Below, one piece after another: positions 48,340 through 57,919 of a DNA stretch of 64,000 nucleotides. A model generated the notes under the pieces. The model worked only from the letters and a program-made list of their open reading frames with translations. It was not told the origin of the DNA and did not search any database. The first letter of the stretch is position 1; the number at the start of each line of letters is the position of its first letter. The DNA is from Candidatus Saccharimonadia bacterium. Lineage in GTDB: Bacteria; Patescibacteriota; Saccharimonadia; UBA4664. The stretch spans positions 15,680-79,679 of the forward strand of contig JBGTMQ010000017.1 in the NCBI GenBank assembly GCA_041743505.1, read 5' to 3'. The translations under genes were made by a program, and so were the position numbers.

Positions 48340-49173
48340 CTATGCCAAACAGTATCGTCCATCCGCTTGGCGAATAATAAACCCTTCCTGCACCAACGCC
48401 GCTAGCACGATCTCCAGCCGCCCGTCCTCGATAACAAACTCACCCGCCAACCGCGGCCGCTCCAGCAGTTGCCGCAACACCTCACCCCGTAGCTGCCGCA
48501 AACTACCCTCAAACTTACTCTGCACCGCATAATGCTTGCTGCGCCGGTTCGGATTCGGCACCCGCTTCGCCAAGTCTGCCCCATAGTCCATCAGCGCGTG
48601 GTACCACTCACGCGGGTGCTCCCGGTCCAGCGCCACCTCAATCACCGGTCGCAGCTCCGCATCAGTCACATCGTCGCGGTCGGCAAAAAACTCATGGATA
48701 AACACCCGCCGGATATTAGTCTCAATAAAAATCACCGGCTCGTCATACGCAAACGCCGCTATGCTACCCGCCGTATTCGGACCGATTCCCGGCAGCCGCA
48801 CCAACACCGCCGGATCACGTGGCAGCACACCATCAAACTCATCCACCACCATCGCCGCCGCCCGCTCTAGCCACAAAGCCCGCCGGTTATAGCCCATGCC
48901 CTGCCAAGCCGCCAACAACTCAGTCACACCAGCCCCGGCCAGTGCCTCAAAATCCGAAAAAACTCGCAGCCATTCCGGATACTTAACCAGCACCCGGCTG
49001 ACCTGCGTCTGCTGCAGCATTACCTCACTCACAAACACCTGATACGGCGTAGGATCATGCCGCCAAGGCAAGTCACGGCCATAATCCCGGTAGAAATCCC
49101 AAACCTTTTCTTGAAATAGGCTATACTTGAAATTATCCATACAATATGGTATTTTAACCCGGTTCCTTGCCAA
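48340..49173 (-). CDS. HhH-GPD superfamily DNA glycosylase (endonuclease III/MutY-like, apparently without the 4Fe-4S Cys cluster)
   Basis: VMLQQTQV...LPGIGPNTAG helix-hairpin-helix and Gly/Pro-rich loop plus a catalytic Asp region; no C-x6-C-x2-C-x5-C. Confidence 0.6.
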   Translation of the reverse strand: MARNRVKIPYCMDNFKYSLFQEKVWDFYRDYGRDLPWRHDPTPYQVFVSEVMLQQTQVSRVLVKYPEWLRVFSDFEALAGAGVTELLAAWQGMGYNRRALWLERAAAMVVDEFDGVLPRDPAVLVRLPGIGPNTAGSIAAFAYDEPVIFIETNIRRVFIHEFFADRDDVTDAELRPVIEVALDREHPREWYHALMDYGADLAKRVPNPNRRSKHYAVQSKFEGSLRQLRGEVLRQLLERPRLAGEFVIEDGRLEIVLAALVQEGFIIRQADGRYCLA

Positions 49174-49190
49174 CTAGAAGAGGTGATCTC

Positions 49191-49616
49191 ATGCCATCCT
49201 GGAACAGGCGTTCTAAGGCCCAAACCGTGAGACCGGACCGGCCCGACCCGGATCCCGTCATCGAAGCCCGCCTCCAGCAGCTCGATGAACTTGCAACCCA
49301 AAACACCGTCAAGCGCGGGCAAATCAACGACTACCGCGCTGAAATCAACCTGCTTCATTCTCAACTGCGGAGCTTCGCCCATAAGGCAGCGAGTGCCACC
49401 TATACTTCCGATGAGACTAAGTACAAGACTCAAATCAAAACCGGTGAAGCTCGCATCGAACAACTCCAGGATGAAATCCGCCAGCTGGAAGCCGGCATCA
49501 ACGCCAACCACGAGCAGATCATCACATATCACGAGCAAATTGTGGCGCATCGCCAGTCGCTCGCGCAAGCCCGCGACGACATGATCCTCCGCTATAAACC
49601 CCCGACCGACACATAG
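49191..49616 (+). CDS. coiled-coil protein, paralog 1 of a tandem triplet (N-terminal RPDRPDPDPVIEARLQQLDEL)
   Basis: AAGAGG RBS; basic Pro-rich N-terminus then heptad-like helical region. Confidence 0.5.
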   Translation: MPSWNRRSKAQTVRPDRPDPDPVIEARLQQLDELATQNTVKRGQINDYRAEINLLHSQLRSFAHKAASATYTSDETKYKTQIKTGEARIEQLQDEIRQLEAGINANHEQIITYHEQIVAHRQSLAQARDDMILRYKPPTDT

Positions 49617-49647
49617 CCGGCCCAAACCTAGCGAAAAGAGGCCAGTC

Positions 49648-50043
49648 GTGGCTCTCCTACGACGCCGACGTTCCACGCCCGAACCCTCACCCCCAACTCG
49701 GCCGACTCATCCGGATCCGGCTATCGAAGCCAAGCTTCAGCAGCTCGATAGCCTACGCCAACGAGTCAAGGACAAAGAAGAGCAGGTTAAGCAGTACGGA
49801 TACGAAATAGCCCAACTCCACATTTTAAATCGGGAGTTAAGCGCCGATGCCGCCTCGGGATACTCAAGCTACGATAGCTGCCAGGGTCAGATCGAAAGTA
49901 ATGACGGCCGGATCGAAGCACTCGCTAGCGCCACCACTCAGCTCGAGCAGGAAATCGACACCGCTCACGAGCGCATCGTTGCATTAATTGCTGATCTGAG
50001 CAAAACAGTCGAAAAAGAGTTTCTCAGCTACTTCATCCAGTAG
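49648..50043 (+). CDS. coiled-coil protein, paralog 2 (N-terminal PTHPDPAIEAKLQQLDSL), GTG start
   Basis: AAAGAGG RBS; same architecture as paralog 1. Confidence 0.45.
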   Translation: MALLRRRRSTPEPSPPTRPTHPDPAIEAKLQQLDSLRQRVKDKEEQVKQYGYEIAQLHILNRELSADAASGYSSYDSCQGQIESNDGRIEALASATTQLEQEIDTAHERIVALIADLSKTVEKEFLSYFIQ

Positions 50044-50066
50044 CCCTAAACGAGAAAGGCTGTGCT

Positions 50067-50450
50067 ATGCGCTTCCTCCGCCCCAAAGTCGCCACACCAC
50101 CACCGCGCGCACCCGACCCGGACCCTGTAGTCGAAACCCGGTTGCAGCAACTCGACGAGCTGGCCTCGCAAAACTCCTTTAAGCGTACTCAGATGGGTCA
50201 GTACCAGACCGAGATTCAGAAGCTATATGACGATATGCGGGCTCTCGAACACAGAGCTCAGAGCTCATACTACAGAAAAGGGGAGGCTCAACGTCAGGGC
50301 CCTGTAACCGAGCGGCGTATCGCGCAGCTGCAAGCCGAAATTCGAACACTCGAGAGTGATATCCAGGCCAATCTGGCCCGAGCTACTGAAGTCAGGCGCC
50401 AGATCGAGCAGGAACGGTTCAGAGACATCAGAGACTTCAAAGCCAACTAG
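50067..50450 (+). CDS. coiled-coil protein, paralog 3 (N-terminal RAPDPDPVVETRLQQLDEL)
   Basis: GAGAAAGG RBS; same architecture; followed by a terminator. Confidence 0.5.
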   Translation: MRFLRPKVATPPPRAPDPDPVVETRLQQLDELASQNSFKRTQMGQYQTEIQKLYDDMRALEHRAQSSYYRKGEAQRQGPVTERRIAQLQAEIRTLESDIQANLARATEVRRQIEQERFRDIRDFKAN

Positions 50451-52440: not shown

Positions 52441-52528
52441 TGGCGGAGGGAGAGGGATTCGAACCCTCGAGGGCTTGCACCCAACGCGCTTTCCAAGCGC
52501 GCGCCATAGGCCACTAGGCGACCCCTCC
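52441..52528 (-). tRNA. tRNA-Ser (anticodon GGA), encoded CCA
   Basis: Reverse complement GGAGGGGUCGCCUAGUGG...CUUGGAAAG...GGUUCGAAUCCCUCUCCCUCCGCCA: 7-bp acceptor stem, D-loop, anticodon loop with GGA, long variable arm, T-loop GTTCGAATC. Confidence 0.85.
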
Positions 52529-52586: not shown

Positions 52587-52615
52587 TTGACTTATACAAC
52601 AATACGTATTATAAT
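52587..52615 (+). promoter_or_regulatory. consensus sigma70 promoter TTGACT-17-TATAAT
   Basis: Perfect hexamers with 17-nt spacing, 60 nt upstream of the 52677 start. Confidence 0.55.
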
Positions 52616-52676
52616 ATATAACACGCACCTTATAGGGTAAACTCCTTACCCTACGATCGACCTTTAAGGGGGCCAA

Positions 52677-53045
52677 ATGCGTGCTGTCATTCCCTTGGTT
52701 GTCATCCTTTTTCTCATTCTGATGACCTGGCTTGTGTTTACCATTTACCGGGCCGGGCAGACGAGACGCATCAACGCAATTGCGGCAGCCGAGGAAGATC
52801 GTTGGGCCAAGGCCATTGCGGCTGCCCGGTGGGAGGATTCACATCGTACGCGCGGCGACATAACCGACGTCATCGTACAAAAAGTAGCCCGCCTCTCGTC
52901 TGGCGAGGAACATGAGCTTGCACCACCGGCAGTCATTGAGTCGATTGCAAATTCAGATCCTGATTGGCACAACAAGTTCAAGATCGCCAAGCAGGAAGCC
53001 TGGAGTCGGGCGATTGATCTCAACAATCCTCCTCTCACAATATAG
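52677..53045 (+). CDS. hypothetical membrane-anchored protein
   Basis: N-terminal TM; AAGGGGG RBS. Confidence 0.45.
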   Translation: MRAVIPLVVILFLILMTWLVFTIYRAGQTRRINAIAAAEEDRWAKAIAAARWEDSHRTRGDITDVIVQKVARLSSGEEHELAPPAVIESIANSDPDWHNKFKIAKQEAWSRAIDLNNPPLTI

Positions 53046-53071
53046 GCAGCTATCTCCAACACCGCCAGCGC

Positions 53072-53122
53072 GGCGGAGTTCAGGACATTAGTCCTGGGCT
53101 CCGCCCCTGGCGGATTCTCTTT
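53072..53122 (+). terminator. repeated terminator element, copy 1 (GGCGGAGTTCAGGAC-ATTA-GTCCTGGGCTCCGCC then CCTGGCGGATTCTCTTT)
   Basis: 15-bp stem; same element at 55180 and 57836. Confidence 0.5.
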
Positions 53123-53163
53123 GCCCTAGCCACAAAATAAGCCCGCACACAAATCAAATATGC

Positions 53164-53192
53164 TTGACTAATATATAAATATGTACTATAAT
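53164..53192 (+). promoter_or_regulatory. consensus sigma70 promoter TTGACT-17-TATAAT
   Basis: Perfect hexamers; predicted 5' UTR of about 130 nt to ATG 53329. Confidence 0.55.
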
Positions 53193-53210
53193 TAAAGAAT
53201 AGCCATTCCC

Positions 53211-53276
53211 GCAAATACTTTCATTCTCGAGACTCACGTGGGTAGAGTCCGGAAATGAGGGGTTTTGCTCCTCCGG
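53211..53276 (+). promoter_or_regulatory. conserved structured 5'-leader element, copy 1 (...GGTAGAGTCCGGAAATGAGGGGTTTTGCTCCTCCGG)
   Basis: About 65 nt alignable with 55317-55381, including a compensatory change in the GAGGGG/CUCCUC hairpin. Confidence 0.4.
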
Positions 53277-53328
53277 TTGGACGACCGCCTCGTCTAGCAC
53301 CCTCACATCTGGAAGGAGTTGAGCCCAA

Positions 53329-55131
53329 ATGGGCCCGTTCCTCAAAACGCTCGGCAAAATAGCCGCGGTCTGGCTCTTACTGCCGTTCCTGATCTTTCTC
53401 TATTGGGTATGCCTCAAGCTGATCGTACCCGGTTTTGGCGGCTGGCATACCGAACTCTGGCTATGGCTCGATAGATGGTTCTATTCGGGTGGTGGCTGGC
53501 TCTGGATATGGCTGGTAATTGTCTCAATCATCAGCCTGCTCATAGTCGCCGATGCCCTTGGTTACGAGTCCCGCAGCTCAAGACAGCTTCACGCCGGTCT
53601 CGGCCTTCTGCTGGTCATTAGCCTGCTCGTCTCGGGATTCCAGTTCATTAATGTAATCTGGAACAACGACAAGGACTGGGCCAAATACTACGCCAGCACC
53701 ACGACATTCGTCATACCGGATCTCAACAACCCACCGGCCTCCATCAGAAAACTGTTCGATCGGAATCCCCACGGGGACAACAAGCCGTGCGTCCTGCTCG
53801 GCCCGGTCAGCGTATCCGGAGAAGCCGACGATATCCCAGTTTGCATTACACCGGGCACACTGCCCATCGCAGGCTGGGAATCACGGGTGTCATCACTGGA
53901 TGCAGCAAAGTTCATGCTCAAAAACGCCTCTGGCGCCACCCCGGGCACGAACATCAACGAAGACACTGTCACCTATCTCAATGCCAGTAATGGCAACGCG
54001 GCCAGGTGGAGTGCCATCCGGGACGGCTCCGGTATTAGCCAACCCATGGACGCCATCATCGAGTGGACCGGCCAGGGTAGTCCCACGGCTTGCTTCTTCC
54101 GGGGCCCACACAGCATCAACCGGGCATTTGCGGGCGGCAAAATGAATAACCTCCCGAATCTGCTCAACGACCTCCATCCCCGGTTGCTCTTTGATACCAA
54201 AGACGCCTGGGGTTACTGCAATAACGGGGAGCCGGTTATTGTCCTACCTGTGCAGGAGCAGATTCACATCCCTACCCGGACAGCACAAACTGCCGCGGGT
54301 GTCGTGATTATGCGGGGATCGCCTTCGGGCGCTCCCAAGTTCGAGCACAAGCGCAACATCGCGCCTGGCGAGCTACCGGGGCCGGTTTACCCCATGACTC
54401 TGGTAGCCGCTCAACGCGAAGCCATCCCTTGGACGCCGGGCCGGGCCATCATGAACAACAACAACTTTGGCTACGATCCGACAACCCACGAGGCTCAAGA
54501 AGGGAATGTTTCGGAGTATCTGCTCCGCAGCGAAACCGACGACCGCCTCTACTGGGTTACCCCGCTCACCCCCAACGGAGACTCACAGGTCCTAGTTGGA
54601 TACTCAGTCACCCCGGCCGACACAGTCAACCAGGGTTCACTGAACGAGCAGAAGATCTACATGCTGGCTGATAACGATCCCAGGATTATCAACCTGGCCA
54701 TCTTGTTCAGCAAGGCTCAGAACTACATGGCCCACCTTAACCCCGGTTTCGCCTCGAATCATGGCAAGGTAACCGAATTCCTACCAACAGGCGGTGCCCA
54801 GGGTGATGAATGGCAAGCATATGGCGAGCTCAACGGACAGGTTATCTACAAGATCACCCTGTCAGCAAGCGAATCGGTTCACCCGATCGCCGTCTCGCTG
54901 CACCGGGACTTCCCACTGCCCAGTCCAGAGCAGCAGCTAGCCGGGACCACGCAGTCAGCTCCTTCAAGTCAACCAGCCCAACAGGGCCAAGCACCCACTA
55001 CCCAGACCCCCACCGGTCTGAACTGCGGGCGGCCACTTGATCAAATCCCTCCAACGGATCTGATCACGTGCATCAGGGGTTTCGCTGACGAGTTAGCTCG
55101 CCGGCCGGCCACAAACCAGCCTGGAGGCTGA
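53329..55131 (+). CDS. large membrane-anchored extracellular protein (600 aa; 3-4 N-terminal TM, Trp-rich; Gln/Pro/Thr-rich C-terminus)
   Basis: Hydrophobic N-terminus, long hydrophilic ectodomain; no family recognised. Confidence 0.5.
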   Translation: MGPFLKTLGKIAAVWLLLPFLIFLYWVCLKLIVPGFGGWHTELWLWLDRWFYSGGGWLWIWLVIVSIISLLIVADALGYESRSSRQLHAGLGLLLVISLLVSGFQFINVIWNNDKDWAKYYASTTTFVIPDLNNPPASIRKLFDRNPHGDNKPCVLLGPVSVSGEADDIPVCITPGTLPIAGWESRVSSLDAAKFMLKNASGATPGTNINEDTVTYLNASNGNAARWSAIRDGSGISQPMDAIIEWTGQGSPTACFFRGPHSINRAFAGGKMNNLPNLLNDLHPRLLFDTKDAWGYCNNGEPVIVLPVQEQIHIPTRTAQTAAGVVIMRGSPSGAPKFEHKRNIAPGELPGPVYPMTLVAAQREAIPWTPGRAIMNNNNFGYDPTTHEAQEGNVSEYLLRSETDDRLYWVTPLTPNGDSQVLVGYSVTPADTVNQGSLNEQKIYMLADNDPRIINLAILFSKAQNYMAHLNPGFASNHGKVTEFLPTGGAQGDEWQAYGELNGQVIYKITLSASESVHPIAVSLHRDFPLPSPEQQLAGTTQSAPSSQPAQQGQAPTTQTPTGLNCGRPLDQIPPTDLITCIRGFADELARRPATNQPGG

Positions 55132-55179
55132 CACAGCGCCCACCCCGCCGGCCTCAGAGCCGGCAACCCCCGCCAGTAC

Positions 55180-55234
55180 GGCGGAGTTCAGGACATCCAG
55201 TCCTGGGCTCCGCCCCTGGCGGTTTTTCTTTTAC
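55180..55234 (+). terminator. repeated terminator element, copy 2 (then GGTTTTTCTTTT)
   Basis: Same stem as copy 1 with a better T-run. Confidence 0.55.
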
Positions 55235-55316
55235 CCCCAACCAAATAGCCATTTCCCACCTCAGTTGACGAACCATATCAAACGTGTTATTAATAGTTAA
55301 GTTTTAAGTCTATTGG

Positions 55317-55381
55317 CAAATCTTTTCGTCCTAGCGGCTTTCGAGGGTAAAGTCCGGAAACGAGGAGGTTTGCTTCCTCGG
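55317..55381 (+). promoter_or_regulatory. conserved structured 5'-leader element, copy 2 (...GGTAAAGTCCGGAAACGAGGAGGTTTGCTTCCTCGG)
   Basis: See copy 1; lies about 70 nt upstream of the 55450 operon. Confidence 0.4.
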
Positions 55382-55449
55382 CTACAGCTCAGGCTGCTGC
55401 ACATTGACAGACAATTCCCACCCACGACCATACTCGGAGAGGAGGATCG

Positions 55450-56502
55450 ATGGGACGATTTATCAGCCTATGGCTAGCTATCCTCGGGCTCACGCTCCTG
55501 GCAACCCCATCAGCCAACGCCGCGACTTACCTCGAAGAGGCGGCCGCGGGGTTACAAGAGGCCAGAGTGTTTGTCTCTGCGCAAGCAGAAAACACCACCC
55601 CGGAAACCACCGGCCGGCTGGAACGGCTCCTCAATGATCGCGACGGCATTGTCATCGCGATACTGCCGGAAGCCGCTTCCACCGAAACCAACGGGGACGT
55701 CCAGGAATTCGCCCGCCGGCTCGACGCAAAGCTTGGCAATAAGTCCGTCGTAGCCGTCGCCATCGGCAAGAAAGTTGCGGCCTCCGCAGCAATTCTGCCT
55801 ACTGGTGTCGCTGTCGAGCAGGCCAAACGCGCCAGTACCGTCTCTTCCAACACGGAAGAAACCCTGGGCACGTTTATTGCCAATATCCACGACTACCAGC
55901 GAGCACACCCAGAGATCAAGATTCCTGCACCGCCAAGCGCTCCAGCGCCGGCCGAAACTGAATCCAGCAGCAATCTGGGCTGGATACTGATTGCGGCTTT
56001 GGCAGTCTCGTTCCTGATCGTCATCTTCATGCTCCTTGGCCCTGGATCGAAGCGGACGACACCAGTCGTGCCTCGTCCGGCCAACCCGGAGTTCGACCTC
56101 ACGTCGCCACCGGTCGTCCGCGAAGTTCTGTCAGGGGTTTTGGCCCTCCGGTCACAGATCCGCGACACCGAACTGCGGAGTACCATCACCCAGCTGGCTC
56201 AAGACATCGAATACTTGTTCGGTGAACTGAGTCAGAGCAAGGAAGTTGGCATCGTCGAGGTTAACGCTGACAGGTTCAACCAGAACCTAAATAGCATCCG
56301 GGAAGTCCTGGTCAAGTACATCAGGATCCAGGACAACCCGCGCTACTACCCACAGGAGTCGCTGGCCAAAGGCCGCCAATCAGTGGCCGATTTTGCCCAG
56401 CACGTACTGCAATGGACCCAGTCCGTCAGCAGTATGAGCCTCCTGGAGTACAACGTTAACACCGAGCTCCTGTCCACCCGTGAAAGGCGGCCAGGACAGT
56501 GA
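55450..56502 (+). CDS. TPM-domain-like membrane protein (signal peptide, extracytoplasmic TPM/YgcG-like domain, TM, cytoplasmic C-terminal domain)
   Basis: GGAGAGGAGG RBS; RLERLLNDRDGIVIAILPEAAS...AVAIGKKVAASAAIL resembles TPM-domain phosphatase-like proteins; one internal TM. Confidence 0.45.
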   Translation: MGRFISLWLAILGLTLLATPSANAATYLEEAAAGLQEARVFVSAQAENTTPETTGRLERLLNDRDGIVIAILPEAASTETNGDVQEFARRLDAKLGNKSVVAVAIGKKVAASAAILPTGVAVEQAKRASTVSSNTEETLGTFIANIHDYQRAHPEIKIPAPPSAPAPAETESSSNLGWILIAALAVSFLIVIFMLLGPGSKRTTPVVPRPANPEFDLTSPPVVREVLSGVLALRSQIRDTELRSTITQLAQDIEYLFGELSQSKEVGIVEVNADRFNQNLNSIREVLVKYIRIQDNPRYYPQESLAKGRQSVADFAQHVLQWTQSVSSMSLLEYNVNTELLSTRERRPGQ

Positions 56503-56858
56503 CCGGCAACCAAGACGGCCTCGTAGTCGTCGTTGACGGTCGCCTGACTCCTCGCTTCGCAGCTACCTTACTGCGAACATGCGAGGCAGCCATAGACCTG
56601 CTCGAGGACGTCCCCGTCCGCGAGTTATGGCTGCGGCACGATCTGCCGGATCGCACCGGCATCACCACGCTCGTTGAGTTTCTTGTCAGCGAGTCTCCCT
56701 GGGAGGGACGGTCACAGATCGAAACGATCGTTCTCTTCTCGCCGTCCGGTGATGGTGGTGAGCTCAAAGCCCTGCTTCAGCCTCACTACCAGATCCGGCT
56801 CGAAAAAGTTACCCCCGAATTGTTCGATGAGCTTCCCGAAGCTCTTGGAGAAAGGTAA
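56499..56858 (+). CDS. hypothetical protein (ATGA-coupled to the upstream gene)
   Basis: 119-aa ORF in an operon. Confidence 0.4.
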   Translation: MTGNQDGLVVVVDGRLTPRFAATLLRTCEAAIDLLEDVPVRELWLRHDLPDRTGITTLVEFLVSESPWEGRSQIETIVLFSPSGDGGELKALLQPHYQIRLEKVTPELFDELPEALGER

Positions 56859-56866
56859 GGCAGGTA

Positions 56867-57802
56867 ATGAAACGACGCACGAGAGTCTTGGCGCTGTTTC
56901 TCGGCATTATCGCCATGGTCGCCACCCTCGGAGCTTGCTCCTCGGCCACCAACACCGACCAGTGCGCCTGGGTGGTGGGCGATGGCCAAGACGGCGGCGA
57001 CCGCAACCTCCACCGGGTTGTCTACCCCGGTCAGGCTGCCAACGAGGGGGTGAACGAAGATGTTTGGTTTGTCCCCTGTAGTTACCGTAACTTCATCGTT
57101 ACCCCCCGTACTGACGTCGGTGACCGGCACGACGCCGTCCTCATCCGGACCAAGAGCCCGGACGGCCAAACACCGGGAACACCACTGAAGGTGTGGTTGT
57201 CGGCCTATTGGACTCCCAACCAGGACCGCGCCGCCATGGAAGATTTCTTGGCGCTGTGCCGAAAGTACACCTGCTACACGCAAAGTGCTGACGAGGCCGG
57301 TTCCGCCAATTACTCCACCCCGGGCTGGAACTCAATGCTACGGGAGAACTTCAGCTTCCCGATCGACCGCATTGGGCTGGTAGCAGGCACTGAGTTTGAC
57401 GACAGCCTTTGGCGTAACCCTTCCAAAGAGCAGACTGACAAACTCGCCAACCGGATGTCCGAGCTCTTCGCCGAGGAAGTCCGCCGCACTACCGGCTCCA
57501 ACAAGGACCTGTTCTGCGGATCAGGTAACTCTGCCTGGCCGGACCCCACCAAGCCTGGCGAGGGTGAGTTCAAGTGCACCCAGGTCCGGTTTGCCATTGA
57601 CCGGATCGAACCGGATGACCCGAAGCTCGTCGAGCAAACTAACCAGGCCAACGTCACCGACCAGCGCCGTCAGGATGCCGAGAAGCTTTACGGGCCTACT
57701 TGGGCGCCGTACTGGCTGGGCGTGCAGGACGCCTGCCGCGACAAGCCCAACTGCACCATCGTTGTCAGCCCCAACGGGAGCCTTCCGGTCCCCGTCCGCT
57801 GA
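56867..57802 (+). CDS. secreted lipoprotein (lipobox LGAC), Cys-containing
   Basis: Signal peptide with L-G-A-C lipobox; AGGTAAGGCAGG RBS region. Confidence 0.5.
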   Translation: MKRRTRVLALFLGIIAMVATLGACSSATNTDQCAWVVGDGQDGGDRNLHRVVYPGQAANEGVNEDVWFVPCSYRNFIVTPRTDVGDRHDAVLIRTKSPDGQTPGTPLKVWLSAYWTPNQDRAAMEDFLALCRKYTCYTQSADEAGSANYSTPGWNSMLRENFSFPIDRIGLVAGTEFDDSLWRNPSKEQTDKLANRMSELFAEEVRRTTGSNKDLFCGSGNSAWPDPTKPGEGEFKCTQVRFAIDRIEPDDPKLVEQTNQANVTDQRRQDAEKLYGPTWAPYWLGVQDACRDKPNCTIVVSPNGSLPVPVR

Positions 57803-57835
57803 TCCATCCGCCGCCTAGCCGGCACACCGCCTTGC

Positions 57836-57888
57836 GGCGGAGTTCAGGACATCTAGTCCTGGGCTCCGCCCCTGGCGGTTTTTTCTTT
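57836..57888 (+). terminator. repeated terminator element, copy 3 (then GGTTTTTTCTTT)
   Basis: Same stem as copies 1 and 2. Confidence 0.55.
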
Positions 57889-57919
57889 GCCTCTTCACCC
57901 CACCCTACACCGGCTCACT

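Follow-up and report, generated by a model that had tools for sequence, protein, structure and literature searches.

A putative cis-acting leader hairpin shared by two membrane/exported-protein transcription units of Candidatus Saccharimonadia

Leader hairpins of bacterial mRNAs have been described in several forms, of which the closest to the element studied here are operator hairpins bound by a protein or small RNA (sRNA), such as the ribosomal-protein autoregulatory leaders and the CsrA/RsmA target leaders; the 5' stabilizing stem-loops of the ompA, aprE, and ermC type, which protect transcripts against 5'-end-dependent RNases; and the attenuator-like four-segment leaders and translational riboswitch platforms. 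The intergenic REP, BIME, and MITE repeats are a further point of comparison. To our knowledge, almost nothing is known about gene regulation in Patescibacteria and Saccharibacteria, and a literature search found no lineage-specific cis-regulatory RNA described for them. Here, a 66-nt block with a covarying hairpin is described, which occurs in the leaders of two adjacent transcription units at 53211-55381 of a 64,000-nt stretch (the window) of Candidatus Saccharimonadia contig JBGTMQ010000017.1. The hairpin, an orphan so far, falls outside every curated family; in its probable mode of action, it resembles the many leader hairpins of bacteria that function as operators for RNA-binding regulators or as stability determinants.

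The shared leader block and its hairpin

The interval 53211-55381 covers two intergenic regions, each located 5' of a + strand gene or genes and arranged in the same order: terminator hairpin, AT-rich promoter-like stretch, common block, unrelated stretch, and strong Shine-Dalgarno (SD) sequence. The common block (53211-53276 versus 55316-55381) aligns over 66 nt without gaps at 74% identity and lies between the predicted promoter and the start codon, at the same position relative to the promoter-like site in both copies. Even when 3 mismatches were tolerated, the 64 kb contained its 21-nt core, GGGTARAGTCCGGAAAYGAGG, at just two places, 53240 and 55345 (expectation from shuffled sequences, 0), and 19 of its 21 nt are identical between the copies. 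Identity along the aligned intergenic regions was 86% in the terminator, 44% in the promoter/spacer, 72% in the block, and 34% in the remaining leader; the block is an island of conservation, and the flanking leader and promoter are essentially unalignable. The structures formed by the block and its core are as follows.

53211-53268, + strand: long hairpin, copy 1; minimum free energy (MFE) −27.1 kcal/mol, z −5.66
53240-53260, + strand: core of copy 1, GGGTAGAGTCCGGAAATGAGG; apical loop, 3' side of the upper stem, and CCGGAAA internal loop
53257-53273, + strand: small hairpin of copy 1, GAGGGG-UUUUG-CUCCUC; no informative covariation
55316-55373, + strand: long hairpin, copy 2; MFE −24.7 kcal/mol, z −3.57
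55345-55365, + strand: core of copy 2, GGGTAAAGTCCGGAAACGAGG
55362-55379, + strand: small hairpin of copy 2, GAGGAGG-UUUG-CUUCCUC

The resemblance of the two leaders, upstream of the gene at 53329 and of the operon at 55450, had been noticed in a preliminary description made from the sequence alone, and it is real and far beyond chance. About 20 nt had been left unaligned there; this segment does lie inside the block, but it aligns without gaps and holds the compensating partners of three variable core positions. A recent local duplication of promoter and leader had been named as the possible source of the similarity. Such a simple duplication of promoter, leader, and gene is contradicted as the origin, because the promoters between the blocks are unalignable and the genes are unrelated; comparison of the 600-aa and 350-aa downstream proteins revealed no similarity, and they are not paralogs.

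When the block was folded alone, the long hairpin was both the MFE and the centroid structure in both copies, and 0 of 200 shuffled sequences folded as well. The hairpin, ~58 nt long with 19 to 21 pairs, spans nearly the whole block. In copy 1, it is composed of a GCAAA/UUUGC base, a CUUUCAUU/AAUGAGGG stem, a short middle helix, a GACUC/GAGUC upper stem, and the apical loop GUGG; copy 2 has the stem CUUUUCGU/ACGAGGAG and the upper stem GGCUU/AAGUC, and across the copies the apical loop reads G(U/A)GG. RNAalifold independently produced the same hairpin with three pairs changed on both sides. In the ungapped alignment, with 21 pairs and 97.6% paired, three double compensatory changes (C-G/U-A, A-U/G-C, and C-G/U-A), one one-sided change, and one broken pair were counted. 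The variable positions 53245 (G/A), 53256 (T/C), and 53261 (G/A) of the 3' half each face a complementary change in the 5' half (3/3). None of the six slid registers of the alignment contained any double change, and random placement of the same 14 differences in a simulation gave a probability of 0.0067 for at least three compensated pairs and of 7e-5 for at least three compensated with at most one broken.

The long hairpin includes three invariant G·U pairs and, in copy 2, a fourth. Because of these pairs, the gene strand folds better, and the reverse strand was 8 to 10 kcal/mol worse. As modeled, this strand asymmetry favors an RNA transcribed in the direction of the genes over a DNA palindrome or an antisense RNA.

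A different and smaller hairpin had been proposed initially, with a compensatory base change in its stem. This small hairpin can form in both copies, and either of its 3' arms pairs with either 5' arm; since both structures use the GAGGRG tract, the small and long hairpins are mutually exclusive. The proposed compensatory change proved to be one-sided, from G·U to A-U with U as the partner in both copies, which amounts to zero covariation signal, and the outer stem expected from the CCGG palindromes comprises only 2 to 3 bp. The covariation supports the long hairpin and not the small one.

The two transcription units were delimited by the following features.

53164-53192, + strand: predicted sigma-70 promoter of the 600-aa gene, TTGACT-17-TATAAT, 11/12 consensus matches in the promoter scan
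~53199-53201, + strand: putative transcription start site (TSS) of the 600-aa gene, placed from the hexamers
53313-53331, + strand: SD AAGGAG and ATG (53329) of the 600-aa membrane protein gene (53329-55131)
55265-55293, + strand: predicted promoter of the 350-aa operon, TTGACG-17-TATTAA, taken directly from the sequence and below the promoter-scan threshold
~55300-55302, + strand: putative TSS of the 350-aa operon, placed from the hexamers
55440-55452, + strand: SD AGGAGG and ATG (55450) of the 350-aa operon
55450-56502, 56499-56858, and 56867-57802, + strand: operon genes for proteins of 350, 119, and 311 aa

According to sequence prediction, the 600-aa protein has three transmembrane (TM)-like segments, the 350-aa protein has a signal-peptide-like N terminus and one TM segment, and the 311-aa protein has a lipobox-like N terminus. 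The initial picture of a conserved structured leader on two exported-protein transcripts agrees with these membrane or exported features of the 600-, 350-, and 311-aa proteins, whereas the covarying structure is the larger hairpin. As coding alternatives for the block, a small open reading frame (ORF) in the GCA-AAT frame, ANTFILETHVGRVRK followed by a stop in copy 1 and ANLFVLAAFEGKVRKRGG... in copy 2, was rejected; the stop differs between the copies, and in copy 1 there is no start codon after the TAA at 53190. A 67-aa ORF that covers copy 1 on the minus strand was likewise discarded, since copy 2 lacks an equivalent.

Candidate role of the hairpin

The block is best read as a lineage-specific cis-acting hairpin of the 5' untranslated region, which through a shared trans-acting factor sets the stability and/or translation of both mRNAs and brings the two units under common control; the probability that we give to this reading is roughly 0.55. 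The hairpin would form ~10 to 15 nt past the predicted TSS in two adjacent, nonhomologous transcription units. Its 5' arm would be constrained by complementarity alone, and the apical loop and 3' half (GGGUA.AGUCCGGAAA.GAGG) would be constrained in sequence. Sequence-specific recognition of the apical and 3' part is suggested because the 14 differences between the copies fall at 4 of 29 positions in the 3' half versus 10 of 29 in the 5' half, with the 5' changes tracking those on the 3' side. This part would most likely be the docking site of a shared RNA-binding protein or sRNA, so that the two membrane/exported-protein units would gain common posttranscriptional control. The adjoining CUCCUC would let GAGGRG re-pair into the small hairpin, and a structural switch would be possible. 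The window also encodes RNase J and PNPase, the enzymes whose action one would expect a hairpin of this kind to modulate. The protein-binding element proposed in the preliminary description accordingly survives as the most plausible option, in the wider form of protein or RNA binding that we infer.

Several results weigh against this role. With two copies in one genome, the covariation consists of three events without phylogenetic replication, and both TSS are predictions from promoter hexamers. The binding factor, a protein or sRNA, is putative. Thermodynamic modeling gave no consistent effect of the hairpin on SD accessibility across the two copies. The leader of the orthologous operon in a Saccharibacteria relative (L018) showed no detectable similarity to the block with BLAST or the covariance model, and no homolog was found in the related or candidate loci (~90 kb and a further ~97 kb), in Rfam, or in the genome, metagenome, and viral scans.

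Like the protein- or sRNA-binding operator hairpins, the element has sequence-conserved loop and bulge nucleotides, arms constrained mainly by pairing, and a presence on more than one transcript, which would make a small regulon. The CCGGAAA internal loop and the SD are unpaired segments that contain GGA, the motif expected in the hairpin loops and at the SD of a CsrA/RsmA target leader. Unlike the known operators, the element has no sequence or covariance-model similarity to curated families, and the real SD, 45 nt 3' of the hairpin in copy 1 and 67 nt in copy 2, is neither inside the hairpin nor adjacent to it. The predicted position of a stable hairpin near the mRNA 5' end recalls the 5' stabilizing stem-loops. 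These are sequence independent, whereas the core found here is identical at 19 of 21 positions, and this strong conservation argues for more than a passive stabilizer; the predicted 5' single-stranded tail of 10 to 14 nt, counted from a predicted TSS, is longer than in typical protectors. An RNA thermometer of the ROSE or fourU type was rejected, as the SD is outside the hairpin in both copies and the stem contains only the SD-like decoy GAGGRG.

In a two-state translational switch, GAGGRG would have two alternative partners, the CUUUC arm on its upstream side (long hairpin) and the CUCCUC tract on its downstream side (small hairpin), and a free CUCCUC would pair with the genuine SD and block initiation. 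The segments CUUUC, GAGGRG, CUCCUC, and SD can indeed pair 1:2 plus 3:4 or 2:3, as in attenuator-like four-segment leaders and translational riboswitch platforms. Both mutually exclusive hairpins are present in both copies, conservation extends ~8 nt past the long hairpin through the CUCCUC tract, the CUCCUC-SD duplexes reach −14.4 and −11.8 kcal/mol, and the MFE structure of copy 1 without the coding region pairs CUCCUC with the SD. Such a switch is nevertheless unlikely. The small hairpin is without informative covariation, and the forced folds of the long versus the small hairpin were opposed in the two copies (−52.2 versus −46.4 in copy 1 and −47.2 versus −52.1 in copy 2). The predicted accessibility of the SD was not consistently changed between the states, and any polypurine and polypyrimidine tracts would yield such duplexes. 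In contrast to the four-segment leaders, the locus has no aptamer, no leader peptide, and no consistent energetics between copies.

The uneven conservation of the two halves (4/29 against 10/29 differing positions) would also fit a DNA operator, in which a transcription factor bound to AGTCCGGAAA at ~+45 acts as a roadblock repressor. This segment contains TCCGGA, a 6-bp palindrome, and a related GGGTAAAcTCC is present in a third leader of the island. However, a DNA site leaves the compensatory changes 20 to 40 nt away unexplained, a palindrome of 6 bp is short, and the distance to the promoter differs in the third leader, all of which makes this explanation very unlikely. Even less probable is a leader attenuator, in which the hairpin and the U-rich GUUUUGCU (copy 1) or GGUUUGCUU (copy 2) would together act as a weak intrinsic terminator that an antiterminator protein could overcome. 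The stem is flanked by the upstream A-tract GCAAA and the downstream U-tract UUUGC, as in many terminators, but the consecutive U residues number only 4 and 3, whereas intrinsic terminators need a GC-rich stem without interruptions and, immediately after it, a run of at least 5. Furthermore, the base of the stem is rich in AU and GU pairs, the hairpin is long and interrupted, no space is left upstream for an antiterminator helix, and the terminator scan that did detect the real terminators of the island did not call it.

Beyond the factor-binding leader hairpin that we prefer, there is an outside chance that the element would represent a Saccharibacteria-specific RNA class, a hairpin switch with a dedicated protein or sRNA that, in an ultrasmall episymbiont, would couple a small envelope/surface-protein regulon to envelope stress or to contact with the host. 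Among the members of this regulon would be a membrane-stress operon of the TelA/XpaC type and a family of 600-aa surface proteins that also occurs in the Actinobacteria hosts and their phages, with the GGGTAAAcTCC leader as a divergent third member. A leader element common to two envelope-protein operons would offer a handle on how an episymbiont coregulates its surface functions. Inducible expression is needed in the genetic tools now being developed (PMC11665869), and the leader hairpin could supply them with a native regulatory part.

Search for further copies and relation to repeats

A covariance model built from the two copies scored 94 bits for each, compared with 12.8 bits for the next best match in the window; the search with this model returned two copies in the 64 kb, in the same orientation and both between promoter and ribosome-binding site (RBS). 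No match was obtained in the six related Saccharibacteria loci fetched around pgi. In Rfam, only a tRNA was matched by the whole window at the gathering threshold, and at E ≤ 10 the two leaders gave only chance microRNA or intron matches far below the gathering scores. Scans for the core with two variable positions free recovered 3 matches in 185,579 species genomes, 2 in JGI metagenomes, and 0 in IMG/VR; these five exact-core matches are about the number expected by chance, stand in unrelated contexts, and are unrecognized by the covariance model. The collection scans required the exact core, and diverged homologs could have escaped them. A blastn search of phage and plasmid collections gave no match to the block.

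The 600-aa protein has 103 relatives at ≤48% identity, found in Frankia, Nocardia, Actinomadura, and Streptomyces, a Saccharibacteria metagenome-assembled genome (MAG), and phage-like or IMG/VR contigs; the block was absent from every upstream region examined. For the 350-aa protein, the word-indexed database contained no relative. In all the data searched (Rfam, the related loci, and the genome, metagenome, and viral scans), no further homolog was found, an outcome that the preliminary description had named as speaking against its proposal. The element is real and has structural support, but its two copies come from one MAG, which for now makes it a local curiosity rather than a family.

Three other resemblances were discarded. 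That of AGUCCGG to the P4 region of RNase P, already dismissed in the preliminary description, is a 9-nt string with no RNase P match even at E ≤ 10. An SRP-like GGAA has no covariance-model match and no helix closing it. The motif ATAGCCATT(T)CC, which recurs at differing promoter positions, is not significant.

A small-molecule riboswitch is the least probable of the explanations weighed. Conserved unpaired nucleotides in the apical and internal loops and the alternative pairing downstream would suit it. The modeled structure is, however, a lone hairpin that lacks a junction and shows neither a consistent pseudoknot nor consistent long-range pairing of the GGGUA loop, and the effect of the alternative hairpin on the SD differed between the copies; the Rfam match is absent at both thresholds, the genome, metagenome, and viral scans and the Saccharibacteria loci gave no phylogenetic spread, and the downstream genes encode uncharacterized envelope proteins, not transporters or pathway enzymes. 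The "riboswitch-like element" first proposed gained no support from a single imperfect hairpin with no Rfam match, no homolog found outside the genome, and no link to metabolic genes.

The zero conservation found outside the source genome would also fit a neutral or selfish palindromic repeat, REP- or MITE-like, or a remnant of cassette duplication, without any regulatory role. A second repeat family is indeed present in the island, consisting of three near-identical terminator hairpins, which suggests modular or recombining intergenic elements.

53062-53124, + strand: terminator repeat 1, ending the 122-aa gene; ~23-bp hairpin and U-rich tail, −46.1 kcal/mol, z −7.2
55170-55235, + strand: terminator repeat 2, ending the 600-aa gene; −44.6 kcal/mol
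57826-57891, + strand: terminator repeat 3, ending the 350-119-311 operon; −43.0 kcal/mol

All three repeats are ~23-bp hairpins, with GGCGGAGUUCAGGAC...GUCCUGGGCUCCGCC nested in CCGCC...GGCGG (z −7 to −8.5), and are followed by a U-run. They are 86 to 93% alike, far above the surrounding sequence, and one of them ends each of the three + strand units of the island; their likeness suggests modular cassettes or recombination between repeats. The block shares with the REP, BIME, and MITE elements the form of a ~60-nt imperfect intergenic palindrome beside another repeated hairpin family. Such elements usually occur in many copies per genome and in either orientation; the block differs from them in having two copies in the 64 kb searched, in being oriented with the genes, in lying between promoter and RBS and not at the 3' ends of genes, and in its strand-asymmetric, compensated pairing, and no terminal duplications were seen at the two copies. 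A repeat without function is doubtful: the 64 kb contain just 2 copies, which agree in orientation and in their promoter-RBS position; the copies are 26% diverged and still keep their pairing by compensatory changes; the strand asymmetry caused by G·U pairs favors a transcribed RNA; and the promoters between the repeats are unalignable.

The variable island and its surroundings

The interval between pgi and msrB (window 52677-57900) differs in gene content in every relative fetched (L014, L016, L018, L020, L021, and L022), and is a variable hot spot, in keeping with its initial designation as an island. A tRNA-Ser(GGA) gene at 52441-52528 (− strand) borders it.

For the operon at 55450-57802, one ortholog set was detectable, located at 11146-15083 of L018 in the same place next to pgi. 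There, the operon encodes a 341-aa homolog of the 350-aa protein, TelA, a 113-aa homolog of the 119-aa protein, and a 349-aa homolog of the 311-aa protein, the TelA gene being inserted after the first gene. Weak family matches were obtained for the 119-aa protein and its L018 homolog (cREC_REC), the L018 homolog of the 350-aa protein (Halogen_Hydrol/XpaC), and the 122-aa protein (PspB). Together with TelA, these weak matches hint at a possible TelA/XpaC-type membrane-stress or conflict module.

In the ~230-nt leader of L018, a hairpin UUUUCUCAUG...CAUGAGGAAG was aligned to the block by MAFFT; with the homology unsupported by BLAST or the covariance model, it was treated as an unproven analogy and left uncounted. 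The copy 2 leader (55404-55412) and the L018 leader (~15128-15120, − strand) share TTGACAGAC, ~40 to 55 nt upstream of the start codon. Possibly, a second, internal promoter lies 3' of the hairpin and has this sequence as its −35 element, although the −10 element is poor in both leaders.

The leader of the 122-aa membrane protein gene, the first unit of the island (52589-52676, + strand), combines a strong promoter, TTGACT-17-TATAAT, with the hairpin UAGGGUAA-ACUCC-UUACCCUA. The GGGTAAAcTCC in this hairpin agrees with the block core at 10 of 11 positions (~16 of 25 over a longer stretch), but the fold is not that of the block. The factor may have a third, divergent site here, or the likeness may be due to chance (rough P of 0.02 to 0.05).

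The window is part of a Candidatus Saccharimonadia chromosome and encodes recA, ftsK, rnj, pnp, polA, and dnaG; the best matches of its pgi, at 76% identity, are to Saccharimonadia MAGs. The Logan contig L001 is identical to the window and, for that reason, provided no strain variants; the locus is present in Logan run SRR28170470.

At 49029-50450, a run of small paralogous coiled-coil protein genes (ORFs of 131 and 127 aa) is accompanied by upstream repeats at 49242-49315, 49711-49749, and 50112-50185; the proteins gave no informative Pfam family and have the N-terminal motif PDPxxExxLQQLD in common. Across the window (1-64000), housekeeping genes are located mostly on the − strand and the island genes on the + strand, and the GC skew is negative in every 2-kb bin, ranging from −0.07 to −0.28.

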